64,000 bases of DNA from Escherichia coli (GTDB lineage: Bacteria > Pseudomonadota > Gammaproteobacteria > Enterobacterales > Enterobacteriaceae): the NCBI RefSeq assembly GCF_044324785.1, contig NZ_CP172127.1; one strand, given 5' to 3'. The position numbers and the translations under genes are program-made. Of the stretch, positions 4,259 through 32,675 are shown in pieces; the stretch's first letter is position 1; the number at the start of each line of letters is the position of its first letter. The notes under the pieces are model-generated. The model ran no database searches and had not been told where the DNA came from. It saw only the letters and a program-made list of their open reading frames with translations.

Positions 4259-5077
4259 TCAGCGCATACTCTCCAGCAGCGTTTCAGCCATCACCCACAA
4301 TGCGCGGTTGAGCTTAATGTCGGTGTCGATGCTGTGAATGGCACGGGTATGGATACGTTTTCCTCTGGCACTGCGACCGGAAATCCCGCCTTTCAGCATA
4401 TTCTCCTGAATGGTCTGATAAGCACTCCACAGGTCCTTACCGTAATCCTCCCGGCGTCGTGGCGTCAGAATGTCGGCGGTGGTGACGGGCCGATGTTCGT
4501 CACCATAACGGTAAGTCAGTGCCGCCTGTGCCAGCGCCTGGCGTGCCGGTGGCGGCAGAATCAGCGACTGCATGGCATCACGCTTTTCCTCAATCCGGTC
4601 AAAAACCCCCACCACCTCGTAAGCCCCTTCAATAACTTTCTCCACCACATTTCCCCGGTGCGGAACACGCACTTCCCCCAGAGACTGACCACAGACGCAT
4701 CCGTTCTGACAGACGAACCTGAAGTAACCCGGCAGCATCTGGTAGCTGGAGGTACCGTCATGGGAGTTGAGCAGAATGATTTCAGGGACATGTTCTCCGT
4801 TTATCTCTCCGGCCCGCCGCAGACGCAGCATATGTTTTGTGTATCCCCGGCGGCCCGGGTCGCGCACACGGGTCTGGCAGGCGAAGAATGGCTGAAAGCC
4901 TTCCCGCTGCAGGCTTTCCAGTACGGTGATGGTGGGAATGTACGCATATCGTTTACTGCGGGAAGTATGCCGGTCTTCACCGAAAATACTGGGAACATAG
5001 TGCATCAGTTCTTCGTGTGTCAGCGGACGGTCACGGCGTATCTGGTTCGTATAACCAAAACGACTGGCTAGTCGCAT
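4259..5077 (-). CDS. DUF932 protein (YfjQ/YafZ family), 272 aa
   Basis: MRLASRFGYTNQIRRDRPLTHEELMHYVPSIFGEDRHTSRSKRYAYIPTITVLESLQREGFQPFFACQ... matches YfjQ/YafZ from memory. Confidence 0.75.
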   Translation of the reverse strand: MRLASRFGYTNQIRRDRPLTHEELMHYVPSIFGEDRHTSRSKRYAYIPTITVLESLQREGFQPFFACQTRVRDPGRRGYTKHMLRLRRAGEINGEHVPEIILLNSHDGTSSYQMLPGYFRFVCQNGCVCGQSLGEVRVPHRGNVVEKVIEGAYEVVGVFDRIEEKRDAMQSLILPPPARQALAQAALTYRYGDEHRPVTTADILTPRRREDYGKDLWSAYQTIQENMLKGGISGRSARGKRIHTRAIHSIDTDIKLNRALWVMAETLLESMR

Positions 5078-21621: not shown

Positions 21622-23384
21622 TGTCACGAACGGTGCAATAGTGGTTCTTCCGCAACTTGGGTGGAAGAAAATGGATGAAACTTTCTGGTGAACAAGGATC
21701 TAAGCTGTTTTAAGTTATGGGCAACGCAATGCACTCTCTTAAGACACTTCTACAGTTACCTTGCGGATGGCGATGCAGTCGACAAATTATTAGCTCTGAC
21801 GGTATCACCCTCCATCTCCACGGAAAACGCAAAACAGCACAATGTCCTGAATGCTCTAAGCGTAGCGACTCTGTTCATAGTTCTCGTCGGCGCCGGATAC
21901 AGCATCTACCCTGCTCCGGGCAGACGCTATGGCTTGTATTTTCCGTCCGCCACTGGTACTGCCGTAACCCTGTTTGTTCACGAAAAATTTTTGCCGAGTC
22001 GCTTGCTCCCTTCGCCGGTTCACACCAGCAGTCTTCACAGGCGTTACAAAATTTACAACGTCAACTGGGATTAATAGCCGGAGGTGAGGCTGGAAAACGG
22101 GCTGCAACGGCAGTGGGTCTCCGTTGCAGTGCAGATACTCTTCTTCGCAGGGTTATCAATACCCCGGGGACGAAACAGTCAGGCGCGCCTCATGTCGGTA
22201 TTGATGAGTGGGCGTGGCATCGGGGCCACCGTTACGGTAAGTTAATCGTCAATCTTGATACTCACCGTCCCCTCGTCCTGCTTCCCGGTCGTGATCAGCG
22301 TACGCTGGCGACCTGGTTCAGAAAATATCCGGAAATACAGGTTGTCTCGCGTGATCGCAGTGGAGTCTATGCAACAGCAGCACGTGAAGGTGCACCTCAG
22401 GCCAGACAGGTGGCCGATCGATGGCACCTGCTAAAAAATATTGGCGATGCGCTTGAACGAATGATGTACAGACATATACCTCTGATACGTCTTGTTGCCA
22501 GTGAGTTGTCACTAAAGAAATCACCTGAGCCAGAACTGTCTGTGCCTGCAGTATCGCTCCGTCGTCCGGAACGCCTTAAACAGCAAACCCGCAAAAAACG
22601 GCATCAGCGTTGGACAGAGGTTATGGCCCTGCATAACAAGGGATGTAGTTTCAGGGAAATATCCCGTATTACAGGCCTGTCGCGTGTGACAGTCAGTCGC
22701 TGGGTGCGTTCAGGAACATTCCCTGAAATGTCAACCCGACCTCCAAAGCGAGGGCTTCTGGACCCATGGAGGGAGTGGTTAAAAGAGCAACGAGAAAGCG
22801 GTAATTATAACGCCAGCCGGATATGGCGGGAAATGGTGGCCCGGGGGTTTACAGGCAGTGAAACCATCGTCAGGGATGCTGTTGCCAAATGGCGTAAAGG
22901 CTGGATCCCACCGGTTACTACTGCCGCCAGACTTCCTTCAGTGTCCCGGGTAAGCCGGTGGTTGATGCCCTGGAGAATAATCAGGGGGGAAGAAAATTAT
23001 GCTTCCCGATTTATTAGTCTGATGTGTGAAAAAGAACCGGAGCTGAAAATAGCGCAGCAACTGGTACTCGAGTTCTACCGTATTCTGAAAACCCAAAATA
23101 AATCACAGCTTAGCAGCTGGTTCACTCGAGTCCACGAAAGCGGCTCAGCAGAACTTCGGCGCGTGGCTGCGGGGATGGAAGCTGATGCTGCGGCTATATG
23201 TGAGGCAATCAGCAGTCGCTGGAGTAATGGTGTTGTCGAAGGTCATGTAAATCGCCTGAAGATGTTGAAACGCCAGATGTATGGTCGAGCCGGATTTGAA
23301 CTGCTCAGGCAGAGGGTCATGAGTCCACTGGCATGAAAATCTCCACCCAAGTTGCGGAAGAACCACTTTTCATCCGTCGTTGAC
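21622..23384 (+). mobile_element. ISL3-family insertion sequence nested in IS66 tnpA, flanked by a 6-bp direct repeat ACAAGA
   Basis: 25-bp perfect inverted repeat gtggttcttccgcaacttgggtgga (21641-21665 and the complement of 23342-23366), with imperfect extension outward to ~21622 and ~23384. ACAAGA at 21616-21621 and 23385-23390. Removing the element restores cttgaacaagagggcagt (LEQEGS) in tnpA. Confidence 0.8.
21717..23336 (+). CDS. ISL3-family transposase (539 aa)
   Basis: N-terminal zinc-finger CPECSKRSDSVHSSRRRRIQHLPCSGQTLWLVFSVRHWYCRNPVC and a DDE region (...IDEWAWHRGHRYGKLIVNLDTHRPLVLLPGRDQRTLATWF...) typical of the ISL3 family. Confidence 0.85.
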   Translation: MGNAMHSLKTLLQLPCGWRCSRQIISSDGITLHLHGKRKTAQCPECSKRSDSVHSSRRRRIQHLPCSGQTLWLVFSVRHWYCRNPVCSRKIFAESLAPFAGSHQQSSQALQNLQRQLGLIAGGEAGKRAATAVGLRCSADTLLRRVINTPGTKQSGAPHVGIDEWAWHRGHRYGKLIVNLDTHRPLVLLPGRDQRTLATWFRKYPEIQVVSRDRSGVYATAAREGAPQARQVADRWHLLKNIGDALERMMYRHIPLIRLVASELSLKKSPEPELSVPAVSLRRPERLKQQTRKKRHQRWTEVMALHNKGCSFREISRITGLSRVTVSRWVRSGTFPEMSTRPPKRGLLDPWREWLKEQRESGNYNASRIWREMVARGFTGSETIVRDAVAKWRKGWIPPVTTAARLPSVSRVSRWLMPWRIIRGEENYASRFISLMCEKEPELKIAQQLVLEFYRILKTQNKSQLSSWFTRVHESGSAELRRVAAGMEADAAAICEAISSRWSNGVVEGHVNRLKMLKRQMYGRAGFELLRQRVMSPLA

Positions 23385-23691: not shown

Positions 23692-24057
23692 ATGATAAAT
23701 CTTCCCGCAGGCACAAAAATCTGGCTGGTTGCCGGTATCACCGATATGCGCAACGGCTTCAATGGTCTCGCCGCAAAGGTGCAGACAGCGTTGAAAGATG
23801 ACCCGATGTCCGGCCACGTCTTCATCTTCCGGGGCCGCAGCGGCAGTCAGGTCAAACTGCTGTGGTCCACCGGCGACGGACTGTGCCTGCTGACCAAAAG
23901 GCTGGAGCGTGGCCGCTTCGCCTGGCCGTCGACCCGCGATGGCAAAGTGTTCCTGATGCCGGCGCAGCTGGCGATGCTGATGGAAGGTATCGACTGGCGA
24001 CAGCCAAAGCGGTTACTGACGTCCCTGACATGTTGTAGCCCAGGTCTTCTTCGTTGA
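23692..24057 (+). pseudogene. IS66-family TnpB, near full length, with a chimeric C-terminal tail across the deletion junction
   Basis: MINLPAGTKIWLVAGITDMRNGFNGLAAKVQTALKDDPMSGHVFIFRGRSGSQVKLLWSTGDGLCLLTKRLERGRFAWP... is a classic IS66 Orf2. The last 8 residues (CCSPGLLR) read into antisense of the neighbouring gene. Confidence 0.75.
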
Positions 24058-24926
24058 TAAAGTTCACATCCAGAGGATGGATACTTCCTGTAGCCCGTAA
24101 TATCGTCGATTCAATATCCTGCACATTCATCGGGATCACCGATGCAAGAAAAGCCCATTGATCAGAATAAGGCTGGAAATTAATATCAACAAAAACGCTT
24201 CCCCCCGATGCACGCGGTCTTTTTTGCAGAGGTAACGCGATAAGATTACCAAATCCTCCTTTTGGCATAGTATCCTGATTAGGAAATAATCGGTCATAAG
24301 AACTCAATTGCAGCTGTCGGGTCCGGCTGCACGTATAGCTAATAATAGCAGTCCCCAGACGGCGAGCTTCGCGGGCCGAAACTCGTGAAGCAAAAAATAT
24401 CCAGACATGCGCTCCCTGACGTGAGCGGGATATTTCCAGCGCAGCAGGTACACTCAGCTCATCACAGGCTCGCATGAACGCGGATGCATCCTTCTGCCAT
24501 TCAGCTTTATCAAAATCAACAGCCAGAAAATAACAGGAATCATCTTCCAGCAACGGATATAACCCGGCAGTATGCGTGCCTGCCAGATGCTGGTAGATGA
24601 CAAGATCAGATACAGGGAGTAACTGACGGTGCGTACAGTCCCCGCATTTTATCCGGGGTTTACCGCATATTCTCGCCTGCCATTCGTTAGCGCAGGCAGG
24701 AGAGTACCCTGATTTGCCGCTGGTTTTACTTTCCCAACGAAGGGCCCATATATCATCACGCCCACGAAACAACCGACGAAATAATGCAACCTTCTCGTCG
24801 GTGGATAATACGGAAACGCGCTGCACAGGGCTCGGCGGTTTACGTCGCCATTCCAAGTAATGAGACCAGACGGGCATTTTCTGCCCTCAATGCAGCTAAT
24901 TCATCGCTGTCAGATTTATGAACCAT
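24033..24926 (-). pseudogene. Remnant of a large primase-polymerase (AEP)-domain protein, probably originally fused to a helicase; 5' frameshift and 3' truncation
   Basis: AEP motifs FLAVDFDKAEW (DxD) and RQGAHVWIFF. The upstream ATG at 24926 gives MVHKSDSDELAALRAENARLVSLL, then a +1 shift (an extra g in cttGgaatgg) into ORF 23852-24877 (EWRRKPPSP...). Homology ends at ...INEEDLGYN (~24033), where antisense IS66 tnpB begins. Confidence 0.6.
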
Positions 24927-25080: not shown

Positions 25081-25644
25081 TCAGTTGTGTCGTGGTCGGC
25101 CCCGGTTACTTTTTTCGGGAAGCCTGCTACGGCCCAGAATAATACCGTGTTCTTTCTGATCCTGTTTAGCCAGGTAGCTGAGGGCGTAACGTAAGTCGTC
25201 TACTGCGGACTTATCACTATAGTGAATCACGTGATCGATACGCACCGGGTATTTATCTTTAGCCCGGCACAGATGAAAATAACCCTCCCCTTCCGTGATC
25301 CGCCTCCAGATATCCCCCAGTTGCCTGGATATCTGATAAGAGTTCTTGTGACGTTGCCCATCCAGATAGCCGATAAAATGAATATGAAGCCCTTTGTCTG
25401 GTGTATATTCCATAACCCAGTAATATCCTGCCAACATCGTCTGGGTTTCGCTAAGTAAACGGTATATTTCCATACACATACTGTGCTTACAGGAATGCCC
25501 GAAACTGGGCGTGTCTTTCCTGTAGGCAAAATCAATTCTGAAAGGTAACAGTTTAGAAAAACGTTGAAACAATCCCTCCATGTGTTCATTCACATCTTTC
25601 AGAATCGCGAAATTCATTTCGTAATTGGGATTGGCATTATACAT
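25081..25644 (-). CDS. YfjJ/YagK-like protein (inovirus Gp2-type domain), 187 aa
   Basis: Pattern ...LLPFRIDFAYRKD...GYYWVMEYTPDKGLHIHFIGYLDG...IWRRITEGEGYFHLC... resembles the YagK/YfjJ family of CP4-6/CP4-57. Assignment from memory. Confidence 0.6.
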   Translation of the reverse strand: MYNANPNYEMNFAILKDVNEHMEGLFQRFSKLLPFRIDFAYRKDTPSFGHSCKHSMCMEIYRLLSETQTMLAGYYWVMEYTPDKGLHIHFIGYLDGQRHKNSYQISRQLGDIWRRITEGEGYFHLCRAKDKYPVRIDHVIHYSDKSAVDDLRYALSYLAKQDQKEHGIILGRSRLPEKSNRGRPRHN

Positions 25645-26775
25645 TTTATAGTCCTTAATTTATAAAACTCACAGGAAGAGGAAATTATGTAAATACTGAG
25701 AGAACATAAACGCCGTAGCACGGCATTAATAAACGAAGTAAACCAGCAGCACAGACACCCTGATAAAACTGTTTTGTATTACCGCATCGCTGTAACGAGG
25801 TAATACTTCAGAATTCAGTGAGGCTCTCTTAAACAGAGGACCAGTAAGAATTACAATGGTAAAAACACACCTCATAGAATTGAGTTTAAGGAAGCACCAT
25901 TCACTCAACCTGACATTCACAAAAGTCAGTACCAGGTGGCCTCAGGTAACATCGCTATTAATATTATCCTGCCATTAAGTAAAAACAGAAACTCTGTGAG
26001 GAAGTCTCACCAATATTTGACCAGTAGCATAAAGAATAACGATATGAGAGATACGCCCACACCAGAGATGATTACCCCATACAAAAAGATAATATTTATT
26101 AATACCACCGCACCTCAATAGACTAATAACACACTAATAGCGTTTTGGTACACACTTAACACTAACTATGCACCAGACACATACTCAGGATTAACATTCC
26201 CAACATTTATGGTACTCTCAAAGAGTATAATTCACCACACAGGTAAACTCTCACACCAGTAGTATGGAGATAATGCTGTACACATACTTACAGAGTAAAG
26301 TGTACAGTTAGCATACAGTGGCGAGCAGACATTACAACATAAAGACATAAGATAGCATAATAAGAACATAACAAAACTCCCACTAATAATACTAATTAAC
26401 CTTAATTCTTTTTTGAACAGGAAATCAACATAGCTCCAGACCTCTTCAGGTCATACACTTTTGTATTGGATGTTCAATGTGTACTTCTGCACAAACAAAA
26501 AAATAAAACCCGCAAAATAAAATATCAGCCCCAAAAATACAGCGTGAAACACCACGTTATGGATATGTTTTCATATCACCAGAAGCATATTTCACACATA
26601 CAATACAGAAACAATTCATCATATAATCAGGGTTACTGTTCACTCCTCTCGGTTATCCGCGAGACGATAAAACATGACACTAATCACAAAAACGAGAGAT
26701 AGTATTTGCGAAATATAAACAACATAAAAATCAATGCGTTGCGATTTTTTATTTTTTCAGACATGCATGCCCCCT

Positions 26776-26811
26776 CTGCTATTGTTGCTAGCCGGCTAGC
26801 AACAATAGCAG
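26776..26811. repeat. Perfect 36-bp palindrome
   Basis: ctgctattgttgctagcc|ggctagcaacaatagcag, with the two 18-nt halves exactly reverse-complementary. Lies 43 nt past the stop of the 607-aa gene. No U-tract on either strand. Confidence 0.95.
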
Positions 26812-26853
26812 GGATATACAAACATCGGATGCCAAAAACACGTTCCGATAATA

Positions 26854-28677
26854 TCATCGAGGATCTGACTGGTTGTTTTTAGTATCATCACCACAAATGA
26901 TGGTTAATGCGTTGTAGATCAGTCTGCGTCTGTTCTTGTTTTCAGCATTATTTCCATACAACATCATGACGTTTTTAATATCATCAACCGGTGATATTAC
27001 ATAATCAACCAATACGCCAAGCTTCTCAATACATTGCAGTAAAGTATATTTGTGTCTGCCCGTAAATAATCCTATCAGGTTTTCTTTACTTTCACGACTG
27101 GATAATATTTTGTTCTCTGTAATTAATTCAGCCAACGTTTCACCATCGTAAACACGTTCTTTATCTATCAGAATATTTATCTTATCTAACGCCCTCTCTA
27201 CATTATCAAGAAGACCTGTAATATACGGAGGCTGAATATCTGACTTTGTACTAATATTTGCAAGCATCGAATTATACATTTTAATGACACGCATCAGAGT
27301 AAAATTATTCGCATCATATTGTATTTCATCTTCATTATACGCAGGATCCGTCACGACCCTTAAGTCCATAAATGCATCCTGATAAGCTTTTACATAATCA
27401 AGTAATTCGAACAGTGAACCATGCTTTATTTTCTCCCTGTTTAATTTGATCTCCAGCGCTATCCTGAGAACTGAAAAAGCGCCGGGAAGATACCCAGAAG
27501 GTAACTCGTATTTTGGGGATTCATCATAAAACCGAAGAGCTTTGTGGAGTTTGTTCCGCCGAATCAGATAAATAAGGACGGCCAGTAACATGTAGCACCT
27601 GGTCACATAACCACGGGCATTCTGCAACTGTTCAAAATAATTAATAATGTTTTCCAGATATACATCATCATAACTTTTCTTATCAGAAAGATTAAACACC
27701 ATATCTTTTAAAGATTCGATATATTCTTGTGATTTATCATCAAGTGACACAATATAACGAGTTAATGCTCCTTTGGGGCCACTCTCAAACTCATGAAACC
27801 GTTCAAGTAATGCTCTTGCATAAGGCGTTGTGTCAAAAATATTAAAATCATAAAGATAGCGTGCAGCGTAGCCATACAACCCATGTACCCAAAGCCCTTC
27901 TCTTATCAGCACTCTGAGATAATATGCAATACTGTCAAGTATCTTTACCTTCCGTTGCATATCAAGCAAAATACTTAATGAATAAAATGCATAATAGAAC
28001 TTGTCAATGTTGTTGAGTATTCTGTCCAGCTCACTCTTATCAAGCTTCTTCTCTCTGTAATCCTTCTTGTATTCATTCTTACAGGCCTTTATATATTGTT
28101 TCATAAGGCTCTTCCTTTTACCGTACCCTTTTCGAATAGTTCCCTGGTATTTTCCCAGCTCATACATTTTTCCGTTTTCCCGAAAATCTTCTCTGTTAAA
28201 TCCCAGTTCAGCAAGATACTCCCGGAGATAACGTTTAACGGCAGCCTCATCGCTTTCTGTACCAGAGTAATCCAGGCAGGGACAATATGATTTTTGCAAA
28301 AAATTATAGATATGATAATAAAACCCTGTTTCATTCTCCGGACGATATGTGTTATATATATCCAGCACAATAAAAACAACTCCAAAGCTTTTCAGAAAAT
28401 AGTTACGGATATATTCGGACTTTAATGTTGAATACACAGGGTAAGAATTCATCATGTAATAAAAATATTCATACCGGGAAAATATAATTCGCCGTTGTTC
28501 CAGACTATACACCCCTTCAGCATCAATAATTTGACTGAGCTCATTATAACGTTGATCCCAGAATCTTTGATGCGCTCCAAAATCAGTACTCTTCCGCTTA
28601 TCTCTCGGACTCTCTCCTTCCTTAAACAACTCAAAAACTGTACAAATATCATACAAAAGATTTGTAAACATGCGCAT
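26854..28677 (-). CDS. Orphan hypothetical protein, 607 aa, AT-rich, predicted helical, no motif I recognise
   Basis: Longest uninterrupted ORF in an AT-rich stretch where random ORFs should be short. Divergent from alpA across an 88-bp gap. Tyr/Lys/Leu/Ile-rich. No Walker A, nuclease, DxD or HxH signature that I can identify. Confidence 0.65.
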   Translation of the reverse strand: MRMFTNLLYDICTVFELFKEGESPRDKRKSTDFGAHQRFWDQRYNELSQIIDAEGVYSLEQRRIIFSRYEYFYYMMNSYPVYSTLKSEYIRNYFLKSFGVVFIVLDIYNTYRPENETGFYYHIYNFLQKSYCPCLDYSGTESDEAAVKRYLREYLAELGFNREDFRENGKMYELGKYQGTIRKGYGKRKSLMKQYIKACKNEYKKDYREKKLDKSELDRILNNIDKFYYAFYSLSILLDMQRKVKILDSIAYYLRVLIREGLWVHGLYGYAARYLYDFNIFDTTPYARALLERFHEFESGPKGALTRYIVSLDDKSQEYIESLKDMVFNLSDKKSYDDVYLENIINYFEQLQNARGYVTRCYMLLAVLIYLIRRNKLHKALRFYDESPKYELPSGYLPGAFSVLRIALEIKLNREKIKHGSLFELLDYVKAYQDAFMDLRVVTDPAYNEDEIQYDANNFTLMRVIKMYNSMLANISTKSDIQPPYITGLLDNVERALDKINILIDKERVYDGETLAELITENKILSSRESKENLIGLFTGRHKYTLLQCIEKLGVLVDYVISPVDDIKNVMMLYGNNAENKNRRRLIYNALTIICGDDTKNNQSDPR

Positions 28678-28765
28678 CTGCTCTGATCTCCGGTTGGTTT
28701 CCGTTTTATCACAGGGGACATTCTGGCCTTAACGTAGCAAATTAATGACATAGCCTTCAACTCAC

Positions 28766-29026
28766 ATGGAGAACAATATGTCAACCCAGACCGGACATTT
28801 TTATACCCCCTCACGCATCCTGCGTATGGCTGAACTTACCCGACTCCTTGGTATATCAAGATCGACCATCTACGAAAAAATGAATCCGGCATCAAAATAC
28901 TACGATGCCACCTTTCCCCGGCCTGTCCGGCTTGGGAGTTCGGCTGTAGGCTGGCGGGCATCTGCCATTGATGAGTGGTTAACTTTACATACAACACCAA
29001 CCAGATCCGTAACTAAGGATAAATAA
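28766..29026 (+). CDS. alpA: AlpA-family phage/island transcriptional regulator (HTH)
   Basis: ...RILRMAELTRLLGISRSTIYEKMNPASKYYDATFPRPVRLGSSAVGWRASAIDEWL... is the AlpA/Phage_AlpA signature. Followed 16 nt later by the yfjI-like gene. Confidence 0.8.
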   Translation: MENNMSTQTGHFYTPSRILRMAELTRLLGISRSTIYEKMNPASKYYDATFPRPVRLGSSAVGWRASAIDEWLTLHTTPTRSVTKDK

Positions 29027-29041
29027 GGAAAACTGTACGCC

Positions 29042-30607
29042 ATGACAAAATTATCCCCCCCTGAACTTGACATAACTAAACTGCCTGACAGGTGCCAGGC
29101 ATTACTTGATGAAATGCATGAAGAAACGGGAATAAGCCGTGAAATACTGCTGTCTGTTATGCTGACGGTCAAGGCTGTCTCGGTCCAGGATACGCATGAA
29201 GTTGAACTTTCTGGAGGGCAGCGTACCAGTCTTCAGATATATATGTGTCTTTCATCAGCATCAGGCAGTGGAAAAACCTCTGCCTGCGCAAAATTAATCG
29301 CCCCTGTTCATGAAACAGAAGAAGAACTACATCAGGCATATATCGACGATAAAAAAAACTATGATCGCATGATGGAAATGTGGACAACAGATAAAAAAAT
29401 CCTGGAGCGGAGATATAAAAAGGAAATGGAAAGATCCCCGGAAAATGCTGCTGCTGCACGAGCAGCGCTTGAAAAGTGTATAGCAAATAAACCCGTACCT
29501 CCCGTACAACAGGTTCTCATCGTGAATGACGCGACACCAGAAGGGATAGCTTTGAAACTCAGCCAGTCACCTTCTCTTCTGTTGCTGTCTGATGAAGGAG
29601 GAACTATTCTGGATAAGCGTTTCGAACGCAAATCGGCGCTGTACAACACATTATGGAGTGGGCAACCAGTCACCGTAGAACGGGCATCCAGACCCGGGTT
29701 CCGGGTAAAGGATTCCCGTCTCACTATGCTTATACTGACTCAACCGGTAATATTTGATAAGTTTTTTACTCTCACTGGCGACCAGATCCGGGGCAATGGC
29801 TTTCTGGCCCGGGTGCTATTTTGCGAACCCGGAGCAAATAAAATAATGACGACAGAACCGCATACTGCCACTCCTGTTGTAACGCAGCAATGTGCAACCT
29901 GTTTTCATGAGAAAAGTTTTGGCAGTCAGATCAGAGACTCTCTGAGAGCGTCCCGGGAAAGGCGTGCAAAAGGTGAGCAACGCATCCGCATGACATTATC
30001 ACACGCAGCATCCCACGATCTGGAAATCTTTCACGAAGAAAATATGAGTGCTGTCAGGCAGAACCCACGTATGACCACTTTCGAAGACATTATCGTCAGG
30101 AAAAGAGAACAGGCTGTTCGAATAGCCGCACTTCTGGAGCTGGAGAACAATCCACATGGTACAGTAATAACACGAGAAAGTATCAATAGTGCTATTTATC
30201 TCGTTGATTTTTATTTTCAGCATCTTATATCCAAACTGGAATCACTTCGGGAAATATCTCCTGCAGAAAAACTGGATAAATGGCTCAGAGAAAATATCAT
30301 CCGGGTAAAAGGATACGAATATCAAAAAAGCCATATACTACAATATGGTCCATATGCTCTCAGGAATAAATGTGTTCTTGATGAAGCACTTGATATACTT
30401 GCAGAACAGAAAAAAATCGTAATTGATTATTCAATCGGCCAAAAAATCATTTATATCGGTGACGCGATTACACCTTGTGAATTAGCAAATGAGGCAAACA
30501 TCCCGATAATGGAGCGTGGAATGTTTATAGTCTGTTGGGACCATAAGCTGAATAAGTACAGAAATGAAGAACAGACTAAAATATGGAACATAACTACAAA
30601 AAATTAA
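29042..30607 (+). CDS. YfjI-like DUF3987 protein (P4-type replication/helicase-related), 521 aa
   Basis: P-loop-like SASGSGKTSA. ...VNDATPEGIALKLSQSPSLLLLSDEGGTILDKRF...GQPVTVERASRPGF...LTMLILTQP... is typical of DUF3987. alpA-yfjI synteny as in CP4-57. Confidence 0.7.
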   Translation: MTKLSPPELDITKLPDRCQALLDEMHEETGISREILLSVMLTVKAVSVQDTHEVELSGGQRTSLQIYMCLSSASGSGKTSACAKLIAPVHETEEELHQAYIDDKKNYDRMMEMWTTDKKILERRYKKEMERSPENAAAARAALEKCIANKPVPPVQQVLIVNDATPEGIALKLSQSPSLLLLSDEGGTILDKRFERKSALYNTLWSGQPVTVERASRPGFRVKDSRLTMLILTQPVIFDKFFTLTGDQIRGNGFLARVLFCEPGANKIMTTEPHTATPVVTQQCATCFHEKSFGSQIRDSLRASRERRAKGEQRIRMTLSHAASHDLEIFHEENMSAVRQNPRMTTFEDIIVRKREQAVRIAALLELENNPHGTVITRESINSAIYLVDFYFQHLISKLESLREISPAEKLDKWLRENIIRVKGYEYQKSHILQYGPYALRNKCVLDEALDILAEQKKIVIDYSIGQKIIYIGDAITPCELANEANIPIMERGMFIVCWDHKLNKYRNEEQTKIWNITTKN

Positions 30608-30649
30608 AGTTCCCGTCTTTTATCATTCAGTTACCAACCTGAATATCTG

Positions 30650-30689
30650 AAACAATGCCAGACATCGGTTACAAACTGGCATTGTTTTT
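30650..30689 (+). terminator. Intrinsic terminator after the yfjI-like gene
   Basis: 12-bp stem aaacaatgccag (30650-30661) / ctggcattgttt (30676-30687), running into a T-rich tail. Confidence 0.5.
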
Positions 30690-30830
30690 ATCATTCAATT
30701 TATAAACTACAATATTACGTATTATTTTTACATTTATGTCATTGCAAATATCAGACAAACAAGCATTATAACTCAATAAGTATATTTTTCGTGATTACAG
30801 ACGACATCTGCAAATCTGTGAGATGTGATT

Positions 30831-32039
30831 TCATCGCTGGTTTTCCATAATCTGAGACATCACATAATCCGCCCATGCCTGCATCATCGGTATACGCTGA
30901 TCCAGCAGATCAGTCCGGTGATATGCCGCCTCAACCTTATTTTTCAGCGTATGGGCAAGCGCCCTTTCCGCCAAATCCCGCGAATATCCCTGTTCGCTAC
31001 ACCAGTCCCTGAATGTTGAACGAAAACCATGTGCTGTAGCCACTCGTCCGGGTATATCACTGATGGCCTTCTTTTTACGCAGAAAACTCGTCAACACCAT
31101 ATCTGAAAGGATCTGCTGCTTTCTGGGAGAAGGAAACACCAGTTCGTCATGCAGACCACGTATATTTTCCAGAACGTGAATGGCCTGTCGGGATAAAGGA
31201 ACACGATGCTGTATCCTGGCTTTCATTCTTTCTGCGGGTATCGTCCATATCCGCTTATGAAAATCAATTTCAGCCCAGCGCATTCCCCTTGCTTCGCCCG
31301 AGCGGGTTGCTGTCAGTATCACCATTAATAACAGTGCCCGGGTAACATTATAAGGTTCATCTGTATACACACTGGTCGCCACAAAAAGCGGTAACTGCCT
31401 CCAGGGCATTGCCGGCTGGTGTTCATCACGTCCTCTTGATTGCTGTGGAAGCAAATGATCAACCACATCAACAGGATTCGCCACACAAAAACCATGCGCC
31501 CAGCCCCACTGCATAACAACATGAATGCGCTGTTTAACCCGGCTTGCCGTTTCTGACAAGGTTAACCAGACTGGACGCAGTGTTTCTGCCACGTCCGCAG
31601 CCGTAATCGAATCCAGCGTTTTTGCTCCCAGTTGAGGAAACGCGTAATTCTCAAGCGTCGATAACCACTGCCTTACATGCTTTGGATTTTCCCATCCAGG
31701 AGACAGTTCTGCATGTACACGCCTGGCTGCATCGGCAAATGTTGGGATAACAACTTTTTCAGCTTCAGCCTTTTTAATCTCCAGAGGATCATCACCTGCA
31801 GCAAGTTGCTCTCGCATTATCCGGGCAGTACGTGCAGCTTCAGCAATACTGACCTCAGGATAAGTTCCCAATCCAGCATTACGCCTTTTTTGTGTCACCG
31901 GACTTACATAACGAAAAACCCATTTACCCCTCCCCTTTACTGAAGAAGGATGAAGAGTCAGTCCTGTAATTCCCCCATGGGGCAATGGTTTGTCATCAGG
32001 TTTGATATGCCTTGCTTTAGTATCCGTCAATACTGCCAT
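30831..32039 (-). CDS. int: P4-type tyrosine integrase (402 aa)
   Basis: N-terminal MAVLTDTKARHIKPDDKPLPHGGITGLTLHP... (P4 integrase DUF4102-type arm-binding domain). Catalytic R (TRSGEAR), HGFRSTFRDW and the tyrosine in AAYHRTDLL. Next to tRNA 3'-end repeats. Confidence 0.92.
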   Translation of the reverse strand: MAVLTDTKARHIKPDDKPLPHGGITGLTLHPSSVKGRGKWVFRYVSPVTQKRRNAGLGTYPEVSIAEAARTARIMREQLAAGDDPLEIKKAEAEKVVIPTFADAARRVHAELSPGWENPKHVRQWLSTLENYAFPQLGAKTLDSITAADVAETLRPVWLTLSETASRVKQRIHVVMQWGWAHGFCVANPVDVVDHLLPQQSRGRDEHQPAMPWRQLPLFVATSVYTDEPYNVTRALLLMVILTATRSGEARGMRWAEIDFHKRIWTIPAERMKARIQHRVPLSRQAIHVLENIRGLHDELVFPSPRKQQILSDMVLTSFLRKKKAISDIPGRVATAHGFRSTFRDWCSEQGYSRDLAERALAHTLKNKVEAAYHRTDLLDQRIPMMQAWADYVMSQIMENQR

Positions 32040-32198
32040 ACGCTAATTCCTGTTACTCTGGTATGCCATTCAGTATGCCATTAGTCTCTCACTTCACTAA
32101 GAATACATTAGATAACATCGGACAGAAAAAATTGTAATGCATTGTTTATAATAAGGTTATATAACACTCCCGGATTAAGTCAGATTTATTTCAGGCGG

Positions 32199-32258
32199 TC
32201 CCCCTCACCGCCATATTTAAAGAAAAGCTCGTACGAAAGTACGGGCTTTTTTTTCGCA
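32199..32258 (+). repeat. Direct repeat 1: copy of the serW 3' end (tccccctcaccgcca) plus a terminator-like hairpin (island att junction)
   Basis: cccctcaccgccatatttaaagaaaagctcgtacgaaagtacgggcttttttttcgca. About 60 nt, near-identical to repeat 2. CTCACCGCCA matches the tRNA-Ser(GGA) acceptor 3' end as I recall it. Confidence 0.75.
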
Positions 32259-32374
32259 TATTGCACTCCAGGGGGGATGAGAAGCCCCGACCGGGGTTCG
32301 ACAACTGGCGCAGCCAGTTGGACAGACCACGAACGCAGTGAGTGGGCTGCCCGCAGGGCGAGCGAAGCGAGTCT

Positions 32375-32436
32375 ATCCCCCCCTCACCGCCATATTTAAA
32401 GAAGAGCTCGTACGAAAGTACGAGTTTTTTTTCGCA
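32375..32436 (+). repeat. Direct repeat 2: 18-nt serW 3' end (atccccccctcaccgcca) plus the native serW terminator; no 5' part of the tRNA is present
   Basis: atccccccctcaccgccatatttaaagaagagctcgtacgaaagtacgagttttttttcgca. Hairpin ctcgtac-gaaa-gtacgag followed by T8 (32406-32431). The sequence upstream lacks the GGTGAGG acceptor 5' arm. Confidence 0.75.
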
Positions 32437-32612
32437 TTTTATCTGCCTGTACGGCAGTGAACTCAAATACTACACGTTTAGTCCGTTATTAATAAAGCAA
32501 AGCCATCTCATTTTCCTGCTACCACCCTTTTTTATCCTTACCTTCCCGCAGCACTAATTATCAACAACTTACCATCATCATCAAAAAAAGGGTCTGAACC
32601 TCCTCCACCCCA

Positions 32613-32650
32613 TAAACAAAAAGTCCGTAACCTCTTTCGAGATTACGGAC
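32613..32650 (-). terminator. clpA intrinsic terminator
   Basis: The minus strand reads gtccgtaatctcgaaagaggttacggac followed by tttttgttt. Lies 26 nt after the clpA stop. Confidence 0.65.
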
Positions 32651-32675
32651 TTCACCAACCTACCTAACAATTAGA

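Follow-up and report, generated by a model that had tools for sequence, protein, structure and literature searches.

An unnamed, widespread backbone gene family and a conserved four-GCTA palindrome in CP4-57/TAI-type islands of Enterobacterales

We analysed a stretch of 64,000 nucleotides of Escherichia coli DNA (contig NZ_CP172127.1 of assembly GCF_044324785.1), called the window below. In it, a first-pass annotation made from the sequence had pointed to the gene of a 607-amino-acid-residue (607-aa) protein as an orphan in a variable accessory slot and as a candidate for a new defence system. We use X607 as the working name of this protein. As shown in Table 1, X607 is encoded by an uninterrupted open reading frame (ORF) on the minus strand, divergent from alpA across a gap of 88 bp (100 bp with the later alpA start of RefSeq), and a perfect palindrome of 36 bp lies 3′ of the gene; on all three points the sequence had been read correctly. 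The G+C content of X607 is 36.3% (35.0% at third codon positions, GC3) versus 48.6% for int and 53.0% for clpA, as low as had been stated. The foreign composition claimed for the gene is real, and it is shared: the low-GC tract covers about 25500-28750, wider than the X607 gene, and the intergenic tract and all of the alpA-side module share this composition. What emerges is a backbone gene family without a name, widespread in islands of a known type, together with a conserved palindrome.

X607 turned out not to be an orphan. When 1.84 billion representatives were searched exhaustively with a profile, 47 clusters at 50% identity were obtained, about 15 of which are full length (580–660 aa, 24–36% identity). 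A word-index search seeded with the E. coli X607 gave near-identical E. coli entries only, and a profile that omitted this sequence was used instead. The hosts named by this search were all Enterobacterales (Klebsiella, Citrobacter, Cronobacter, Enterobacter, Lelliottia, Leclercia, Pectobacterium, Yersinia, Pantoea, Erwinia and Edwardsiella), and every entry was labelled 'hypothetical'. X607 DNA was found in 233 of the 5426 complete E. coli genomes, in near-identical form in 158 and as a 77%-identical allele in 75. This second allele (77% DNA and 72% protein identity) occurs in O104:H4 C227-11 and in enteropathogenic E. coli (EPEC) E2348/69. A third E. coli type, 605 aa long and 30% identical (hhalign E 2.8e-99), is the 'hypothetical protein' encoded next to int in the islands of O157:H7 and Nissle; this O157-type X607 was found in 1037 of the 5426 genomes. 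Small and confined to Enterobacterales, the X607 family occurs, on islands of the tRNA/tmRNA type, in roughly one in five complete E. coli genomes. None of 50,697 phage genomes contained it, and it was almost never found on plasmids.

X607 is a real gene under purifying selection, because the ratio of nonsynonymous to synonymous substitution rates (dN/dS) was 0.18 against the 72%-identical allele (a second value was 0.24) and full-length homologues occur down to 24% identity. Searches of X607 against Pfam, NCBIfam, PADLOC, PHROGs and PDB sequences gave zero matches; a profile search of PDB sequences gave noise only (E > 0.02), and no family of the PADLOC-DB 2.0 models was hit at E ≤ 1. A literature search by the RefSeq accessions of X607-family proteins found no paper mentioning them. 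The protein is thus unnamed in every library, and the earlier statements that it is undescribed and carries no recognisable signature both hold.

Broken copies of X607 were also seen. In several E. coli lineages (H1, H2 and H69-H72) the gene is split by insertion sequences (IS), namely ISVsa5, IS4321 and, in pig enterotoxigenic E. coli (ETEC), IS2. Truncated forms of 384–437 aa are common (clusters P0071 and P0073). From the truncated forms and the IS splits it follows that X607 has repeatedly been lost while the island stayed.

In ten genome loci, drawn from eight genera, an X607 homologue is encoded back-to-back with alpA, which is followed by the DUF3987 gene. The same layout was found in two IMG/VR contigs and in Yersinia ruckeri, Pantoea ananatis and Citrobacter freundii. 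Homologues only 24–36% identical to X607 lie beside alpA and the DUF3987 gene in Kluyvera, Morganella, Leclercia, Providencia, Edwardsiella, Xenorhabdus, Enterobacter, Yersinia, Pantoea and Citrobacter, and the three E. coli types of X607 share the back-to-back layout. None of the loci examined, even at 24% identity, departed from the arrangement of X607 and alpA. The gap between the two genes was about 88–100 bp in all loci except those of O157:H7 and Nissle, in which IS1 is inserted between them. In distant loci a YagK/YfjJ gene (Gp2-like, HUH Rep-like) follows the DUF3987 gene, and the resulting order alpA-DUF3987-YfjJ is that of the alpA-yfjI-yfjJ operon of CP4-57. The backbone set of CP4-57/TAI, consisting of a tyrosine integrase, AlpA, DUF3987/YfjI and YagK/YfjJ, is complete in the window and in the related loci examined.

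Known defence systems begin directly 3′ of X607 in most of its relatives, and the neighbours of X607 in other species matched the PADLOC models of Ham, Qat, type I and type III restriction-modification (RM) and Mokosh. The cargo beyond X607 is Hachimoji and PDC-S06 in Kluyvera, QatABCD in Leclercia, type I RM with DUF262 proteins in Providencia, type III RM with an HKD-Snf2 protein in Edwardsiella and Mokosh in Enterobacter. CP4-57-like yfjP and yfjQ are located further along, past the cargo. X607 adjoined alpA in all loci examined while the systems downstream differed. Since the genes beyond it differ between loci, X607 is the fixed edge of a cargo hotspot; it is a core or backbone gene of CP4-57/TAI-type integrative, satellite-like islands and not cargo. 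Its place beside alpA is syntenically fixed, and the description of that place as a variable accessory slot has to be given up.

The first fixed gene of a hotspot could itself be a conserved single-gene anti-phage, phage-interference or counter-defence protein made constitutively, a possibility that we regard as somewhat unlikely. X607 abuts known defence systems in most loci, has a low G+C content and a putative conserved promoter of its own (see below), and would be a new system, given that PADLOC did not hit it. YfjH, encoded in the same slot of CP4-57, blocked a retron toxin in an overexpression screen (bioRxiv 10.1101/2020.06.22.160242), and the satellites called phage-inducible chromosomal minimalist islands (PICMI) carry the novel defence gene up2 (PMC10803314). 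However, defence cargo comes and goes in these islands, while X607 stays in place and diverges in step with alpA and DUF3987. That X607 stays with alpA and DUF3987 while the adjacent cargo changes therefore favours a role in the life cycle of the island over stand-alone defence. The frequent inactivation of X607 by IS in E. coli also speaks against a defence gene. What stands of the earlier defence proposal is the adjacency to known defence systems in most relatives; what falls is the variable cargo, in place of which we found a conserved backbone gene. X607 may still have a conserved anti-phage or anti-defence role. Taken as a whole, the orphan defence gene in a variable slot was partly supported, and the observation behind it was largely correct.

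The X607 module of the window was compared with those of two related E. coli islands (cassettes in Table 1). Between the window and the O104:H4 island, protein identity was 96.5% for int, 96.3% for Gp2, 80.9% for DUF3987, 71.8% for X607 and 63.6% for alpA. The corresponding numbers of synonymous substitutions per site (dS) were 0.18, 0.20, 0.35, 0.91 and 0.92. The O157:H7 island has high identity to that of the window in int (97%), Gp2 (94%) and the AEP-helicase (97%) and carries a diverged cassette (X607 30%, DUF3987 26%, alpA 77%). Over the O157:H7 and Nissle islands together, int is 97%, Gp2/AEP 94–97%, X607 30% and DUF3987 26% identical. The cassette of X607, alpA and DUF3987 is inverted in both, so that in O157:H7 X607 faces int. 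Across 78 locus pairs, which are non-independent and make the correlations descriptive only, X607 identity correlated with that of alpA (Spearman 0.66) and DUF3987 (0.65) and not with that of int (0.18). Mosaicism was also seen within the module: one pair combined 61% identity in X607 with 33% in DUF3987, and in another pair this was reversed. The divergence of X607 tracks that of alpA and DUF3987 and is independent of the integrase.

The control region between X607 and alpA contains a block, at 28688-28724, that is conserved at the DNA level across genera (8 aligned loci, whose proteins are 25–35% identical to one another). Occupying roughly the last 40 nt 5′ of the X607 start, it comprises a −10-like element, mostly preceded by TG, then GTCCCCGT, an A-run and the invariant AAACCAAC(C/T)G(G/C)AG. 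The ribosome-binding site of X607 lies within this last element, just 5′ of the start codon. The exact control block occurs only once in the window. A consensus promoter scan of the control region performed no better than chance, and the promoter was assigned by eye. Read on the alpA strand, part of the control block is ACGGGGACA, which resembles half of the binding element of Pseudomonas aeruginosa AlpA, GGGACGN5GGTA (PMC7969949). We treat this likeness as a lead only, because the full motif was absent from the control region and the window contained no further copies.

An AlphaFold2 model of X607 built from 35 diverse sequences had a mean pLDDT of 85.4 and a pTM of 0.84; an earlier run on 4 near-identical sequences had reached pLDDT 40 and was discarded. 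The model contains 28 helices and zero sheet, in agreement with the all-helical protein noticed at first. Foldseek searches of the model against PDB and BFVD found nothing significant. The best structural matches were the TPR-type RRNPP regulators NprR, RapI, AimR and PlcR, to which the predicted fold appears similar in part, so that only a portion of it resembles solved structures. A Pfam TPR scan of the 35 family members gave zero hits, as did HTH (helix-turn-helix) models against X607. The invariant or near-invariant residues are mostly hydrophobic. The few conserved polar ones are H36, Q37, D52, R62, E70, K411, N458, N469 and K499, and no recognisable catalytic motif was found among the conserved residues. 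Two further points bear on the defence role considered above. Nuclease, NTPase, TIR, Sir2 and other effector-like motifs are lacking in X607, as is any conserved acidic/His cluster such as enzymes typically show; and TPR proteins confined to sensing normally require an effector partner, none of which is conserved nearby.

In two distant relatives, P0108 (865 aa) and P0112 (933 aa), the X607 domain is preceded by an HTH and a diverged transposase-like domain of the IS481 type. The IS481-like domain scored 69–79 bits, below the curated cut-off, and its expected catalytic positions look altered. As the two proteins are collinear over 884 columns, the HTH-IS481-X607 fusion is conserved; it links the X607 domain to DNA-bound recombination or regulatory proteins.

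Our preferred reading, which we hold tentatively, is that X607 acts in the life cycle of the island as a scaffold or sensor. It would be a non-enzymatic, TPR-like alpha-solenoid, expressed while the island is quiescent and acting through protein-protein contacts, and would either gate the AlpA-driven switch to excision and replication or assist that recombination. Several points weigh against this. X607 has no detectable DNA-binding domain, and a repressor role would therefore need a partner. A number of E. coli strains keep the island with an IS-interrupted or truncated copy of the gene; because broken copies occur where islands persist, X607 is dispensable for island carriage. The position next to defence cargo and the low G+C content also fit a conserved defence or counter-defence gene, and the blocking of a retron toxin by overexpressed YfjH points the same way. 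The function of X607 given here is an inference. To a more far-reaching version we give only a small chance: that X607 is a sensor or master switch holding the AlpA-YfjI-YfjJ operon off until contact with a phage or stress, that the palindrome is an origin or packaging signal, and that the islands are inducible satellites which mobilise defence.

Each arm of the palindrome contains two KGCWA pentamers 9 bp apart, which gives four GCTA boxes. A perfect or near-perfect palindrome of 30–47 bp was found 15–115 nt 3′ of the stop codon in each of the 14 loci outside the O157 type for which an intact X607 homologue and the DNA 3′ of it were available, Yersinia ruckeri included, and the palindrome was kept in locus L012 although X607 has decayed there. 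In the 13 distinct variants, compared at 15 arm positions, pairing was Watson-Crick throughout (195/195). Eight of the 15 arm positions vary on both sides in a compensatory manner, the GC.A and GCTA boxes are invariant, and complementarity collapses immediately outside the arms. The predicted RNA fold had −43.6 kcal/mol (z −4.8). The motif occurs once per island and once in the 64-kb window. Judged from these sequence patterns, the palindrome appears to be selected for pairing, as a hairpin or cruciform, and its GCTA boxes for recognition by a protein. It most likely forms a hairpin or cruciform serving as an origin, as a binding site of AlpA or DUF3987, or as an RNA or insulator hairpin. A canonical Rho-independent terminator was considered and rejected: the stem is stable, no T-run follows it on either strand in 12 loci, and the terminator scan did not list the palindrome. 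To our knowledge, this four-GCTA palindrome family has not been described before.

The palindrome does not belong to X607 alone. In a scan of 2.9 million viral contigs, the same palindrome was found in alpA-DUF3987 islands that carry YfjH (59% identical to K-12 YfjH) instead of X607, where it is located between alpA and yfjI (L025:4352-4381). A decayed copy occupies that place in CP4-57 of K-12 (L015, about 4908-4945), and in another element the palindrome is upstream of alpA (L061:13082-13111). The O157-type X607 homologue has no such palindrome. An X607-specific site is ruled out by the presence of the palindrome in islands without X607. Because it was found without X607 and in three positions of the module, the palindrome is a cis element of the alpA-YfjI module family.

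The same distribution bears on the idea that X607 recognises the GCTA palindrome as an accessory of replication, partition or packaging, for example as an origin-binding or helicase-loading partner of DUF3987, or as a factor acting at a pac site. The closeness of the palindrome to the stop codon in all 14 loci and its retention in L012 would suit such a protein. So would its four pentamers in two inverted pairs, which recall the origins of viral initiator-helicases, and the putative helicase encoded by the module. Yet palindromes in YfjH-type islands, the decayed K-12 copy and the copy 5′ of alpA in L061 occur apart from X607, the O157-type X607 has none, and X607 has no recognisable DNA-binding domain. 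We consider this role quite improbable.

What follows the palindrome varies. In Yersinia ruckeri it is int and not cargo. The Xenorhabdus cargo after the palindrome (L011:12192-19406) consists of a gene for an FRG-domain protein and a five-gene cluster without a PADLOC match, two of the cluster genes having been scanned, and the Morganella cargo (L006:12190-13547) consists of two small genes, also without a PADLOC match. Because of their position in the hotspot, both are candidates for undescribed defence systems.

Table 1. Features of the X607 locus in the window and corresponding stretches of other loci.
Feature	Position	Strand	Remarks
AEP-TOTE primase-SF2 helicase remnant	23852..24877	-	PADLOC PrimPol, E 3.9e-128; RefSeq pseudogene
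Inovirus-Gp2 / YagK-YfjJ-like gene (HUH Rep-like), 3′ of X607	25081..25644	-	RefSeq name; weak Pfam REP_ORF2-G2P and YagK_YfjJ_C matches
Conserved non-coding region 5′ of Gp2-like gene	25645..26428	-	Not X607-specific
Perfect 36-bp palindrome	26776..26811		42 nt 3′ of X607 stop codon
X607 coding sequence, 607 aa	26854..28677	-	Predicted all-alpha, partly TPR-like; unannotated Enterobacterales family
X607/alpA back-to-back control region	28678..28765		-10-like element, GTCCCC, A-run, AAACCAAC(C/T)G(G/C)AG
alpA, Phage_AlpA family HTH, excisionase/regulator type	28766..29026	+	Pfam PF05930, E 7e-19
DUF3987 / YfjI-family gene, Walker A/B motifs, putative replicative helicase of element	29042..30607	+	Pfam PF13148, E 3e-63
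Tyrosine integrase of island, adjoins clpA	30831..32039	-	96.5-97% identical to O104:H4 and O157:H7 island integrases
157-aa ORF in other islands	L010:6597-7070, L011:6506-6979, L013:6587-7060, L018:6598-7071, L019:6579-7052		
Compared cassettes	window 28678-32039; L017:1894-8536 (O157:H7); L003 (O104:H4)		

The other features of the window are listed in Table 1. The DUF3987 protein also matched the PHROG 'DNA helicase' (E 2.4e-40). On the other side of X607, the gene-free tract of 1.2 kb noticed earlier is free of annotated genes indeed, the 1209 bp at 25645-26853 containing none in the identical E. coli SMS-3-5 record. It is not one unit, since its distal 350–780 bp are the upstream region of the Gp2-like gene. 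This distal part has 83–89% identity in about 1300–1500 complete E. coli genomes, and the region is present in far more of them than X607. Its distal 352 bp were matched at 83–86% in some 1300 additional E. coli genomes, and in part of these the match extended over the distal 784 bp. It could be a leader, promoter or origin for the Rep-like gene. An Rfam scan of 25600-28800 found no match.

The remnant of a primase-polymerase reported earlier was confirmed as an AEP-TOTE pseudogene. An intact copy of 786 aa, with Pfam AEP-TOTE, ResIII and Helicase_C domains, is present in O104:H4 and O157:H7. IS66 tnpB and an ISL3 transposase gene (21717-23336) are inserted beside the truncated gene of the window (compare L001:15752-18961). 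TOTE stands for TPR, OB, TBP and Effector (PMC12458937), and one might suppose that X607 supplies the TPR part of such a conflict system, with the nearby primase-helicase as its partner. A TPR-like protein and an AEP-TOTE effector do occur together in the same E. coli islands, the predicted fold of X607 being TPR-like and the AEP-TOTE gene lying 0.4–1.5 kb beyond the Gp2-like gene. This supposition is very improbable and is largely refuted by distribution. Neither X607 nor its neighbours showed a cold-shock (CSD)/OB or TBP domain, and in species other than E. coli no AEP-TOTE gene lies within 10 kb of X607. In the window X607 is intact but the effector gene is reduced to a truncated pseudogene, and the 1.2-kb tract and the Gp2-like gene separate the two. 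With no CSD or TBP domain and an AEP-TOTE link confined to E. coli islands, membership of X607 in TOTE was rejected.

Some further observations concern the integrase side of the islands. ARAGORN found zero tRNA or tmRNA genes in the whole window (1-64000), despite a P4-type integrase beside clpA. The int-proximal junction (32040-32675) contains an RtT-like element at 32256-32392 (43.9 bits, slightly below the Rfam threshold), and the O104:H4 island has an annotated RtT small RNA (sRNA) at the equivalent position. In ssrA-type islands a conserved 157-aa ORF, with zero Pfam or NCBIfam matches, is located directly after the integrase, and Yersinia ruckeri has a 154-aa ORF at the same place relative to int (L083).

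Much of the cargo for defence and virulence in E. coli and related bacteria, O157:H7, O104:H4, EPEC and Nissle among them, resides on islands of the X607 type, and how such islands are silenced, excised, replicated and exchanged is poorly understood. Two unnamed parts are added here to their backbone: a protein family of about 600 aa and a four-GCTA palindrome of perfect symmetry and strongly compensatory evolution. X607 and the palindrome can serve as landmarks for the boundary of the cargo hotspot, where new defence systems may be sought. If X607 were a sensor or switch and the palindrome an origin or packaging signal, widespread 'cryptic prophages' of E. coli, among them the tellurite/adherence island of O157:H7, would be inducible phage satellites.

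The slot of X607 in CP4-57 is held by YfjH, as had been stated in the first-pass annotation: yfjH is divergent from alpA in an island with int, alpA, yfjI (DUF3987) and yfjJ, and its function is unknown. YfjH is about 300 aa long and X607 about 600 aa, and hhalign gave a probability of 0.1–0.2% for their homology, that is, no detectable sequence relationship. YfjH-type islands share the GCTA palindrome, but between alpA and yfjI and not after the divergent gene. By predicted fold, the closest proteins are the RRNPP regulators with their alpha-solenoid of TPR-like repeats. X607 is about twice their size and has neither a TPR profile hit nor an HTH. Of these regulators, RapI and AimR control the induction of a mobile element or phage. 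Stl of the Staphylococcus aureus pathogenicity islands (SaPI) is encoded divergently from the excision/replication operon, with a short control region in between, and is very diverged between similar islands. X607 is likewise transcribed divergently, 88–100 bp from alpA, which offers an analogy of position only. Stl has about 250–280 aa with an N-terminal HTH, whereas X607 has no DNA-binding domain and matches Stl in neither sequence nor fold.

PICMI of Vibrionaceae have a core of integrase, AlpA and a DUF3987 protein and carry defence cargo; the DUF3987 protein, called 'primase', is required for replication (PMC10803314). Similar satellite-like carriers of defence islands have AlpA and an HUH Rep (PMC12458937). 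PICMI and the phage-inducible chromosomal islands (PICI) of Enterobacterales have the int-alpA-primase/helicase core in common with X607 islands. PICMI integrate at fis, whereas X607 islands lie beside clpA, ycdU or smpB-ssrA with no fis nearby. Unlike PICMI and PICI satellites, X607 islands are large and many are IS-decayed, and X607 showed no homology to named satellite genes in the profile libraries and PHROGs. Between int and alpA, PICMI carry varied genes of unknown function, among them iolg, which is needed for excision (PMC10803314), and the location of X607 may be likened to that of these genes.

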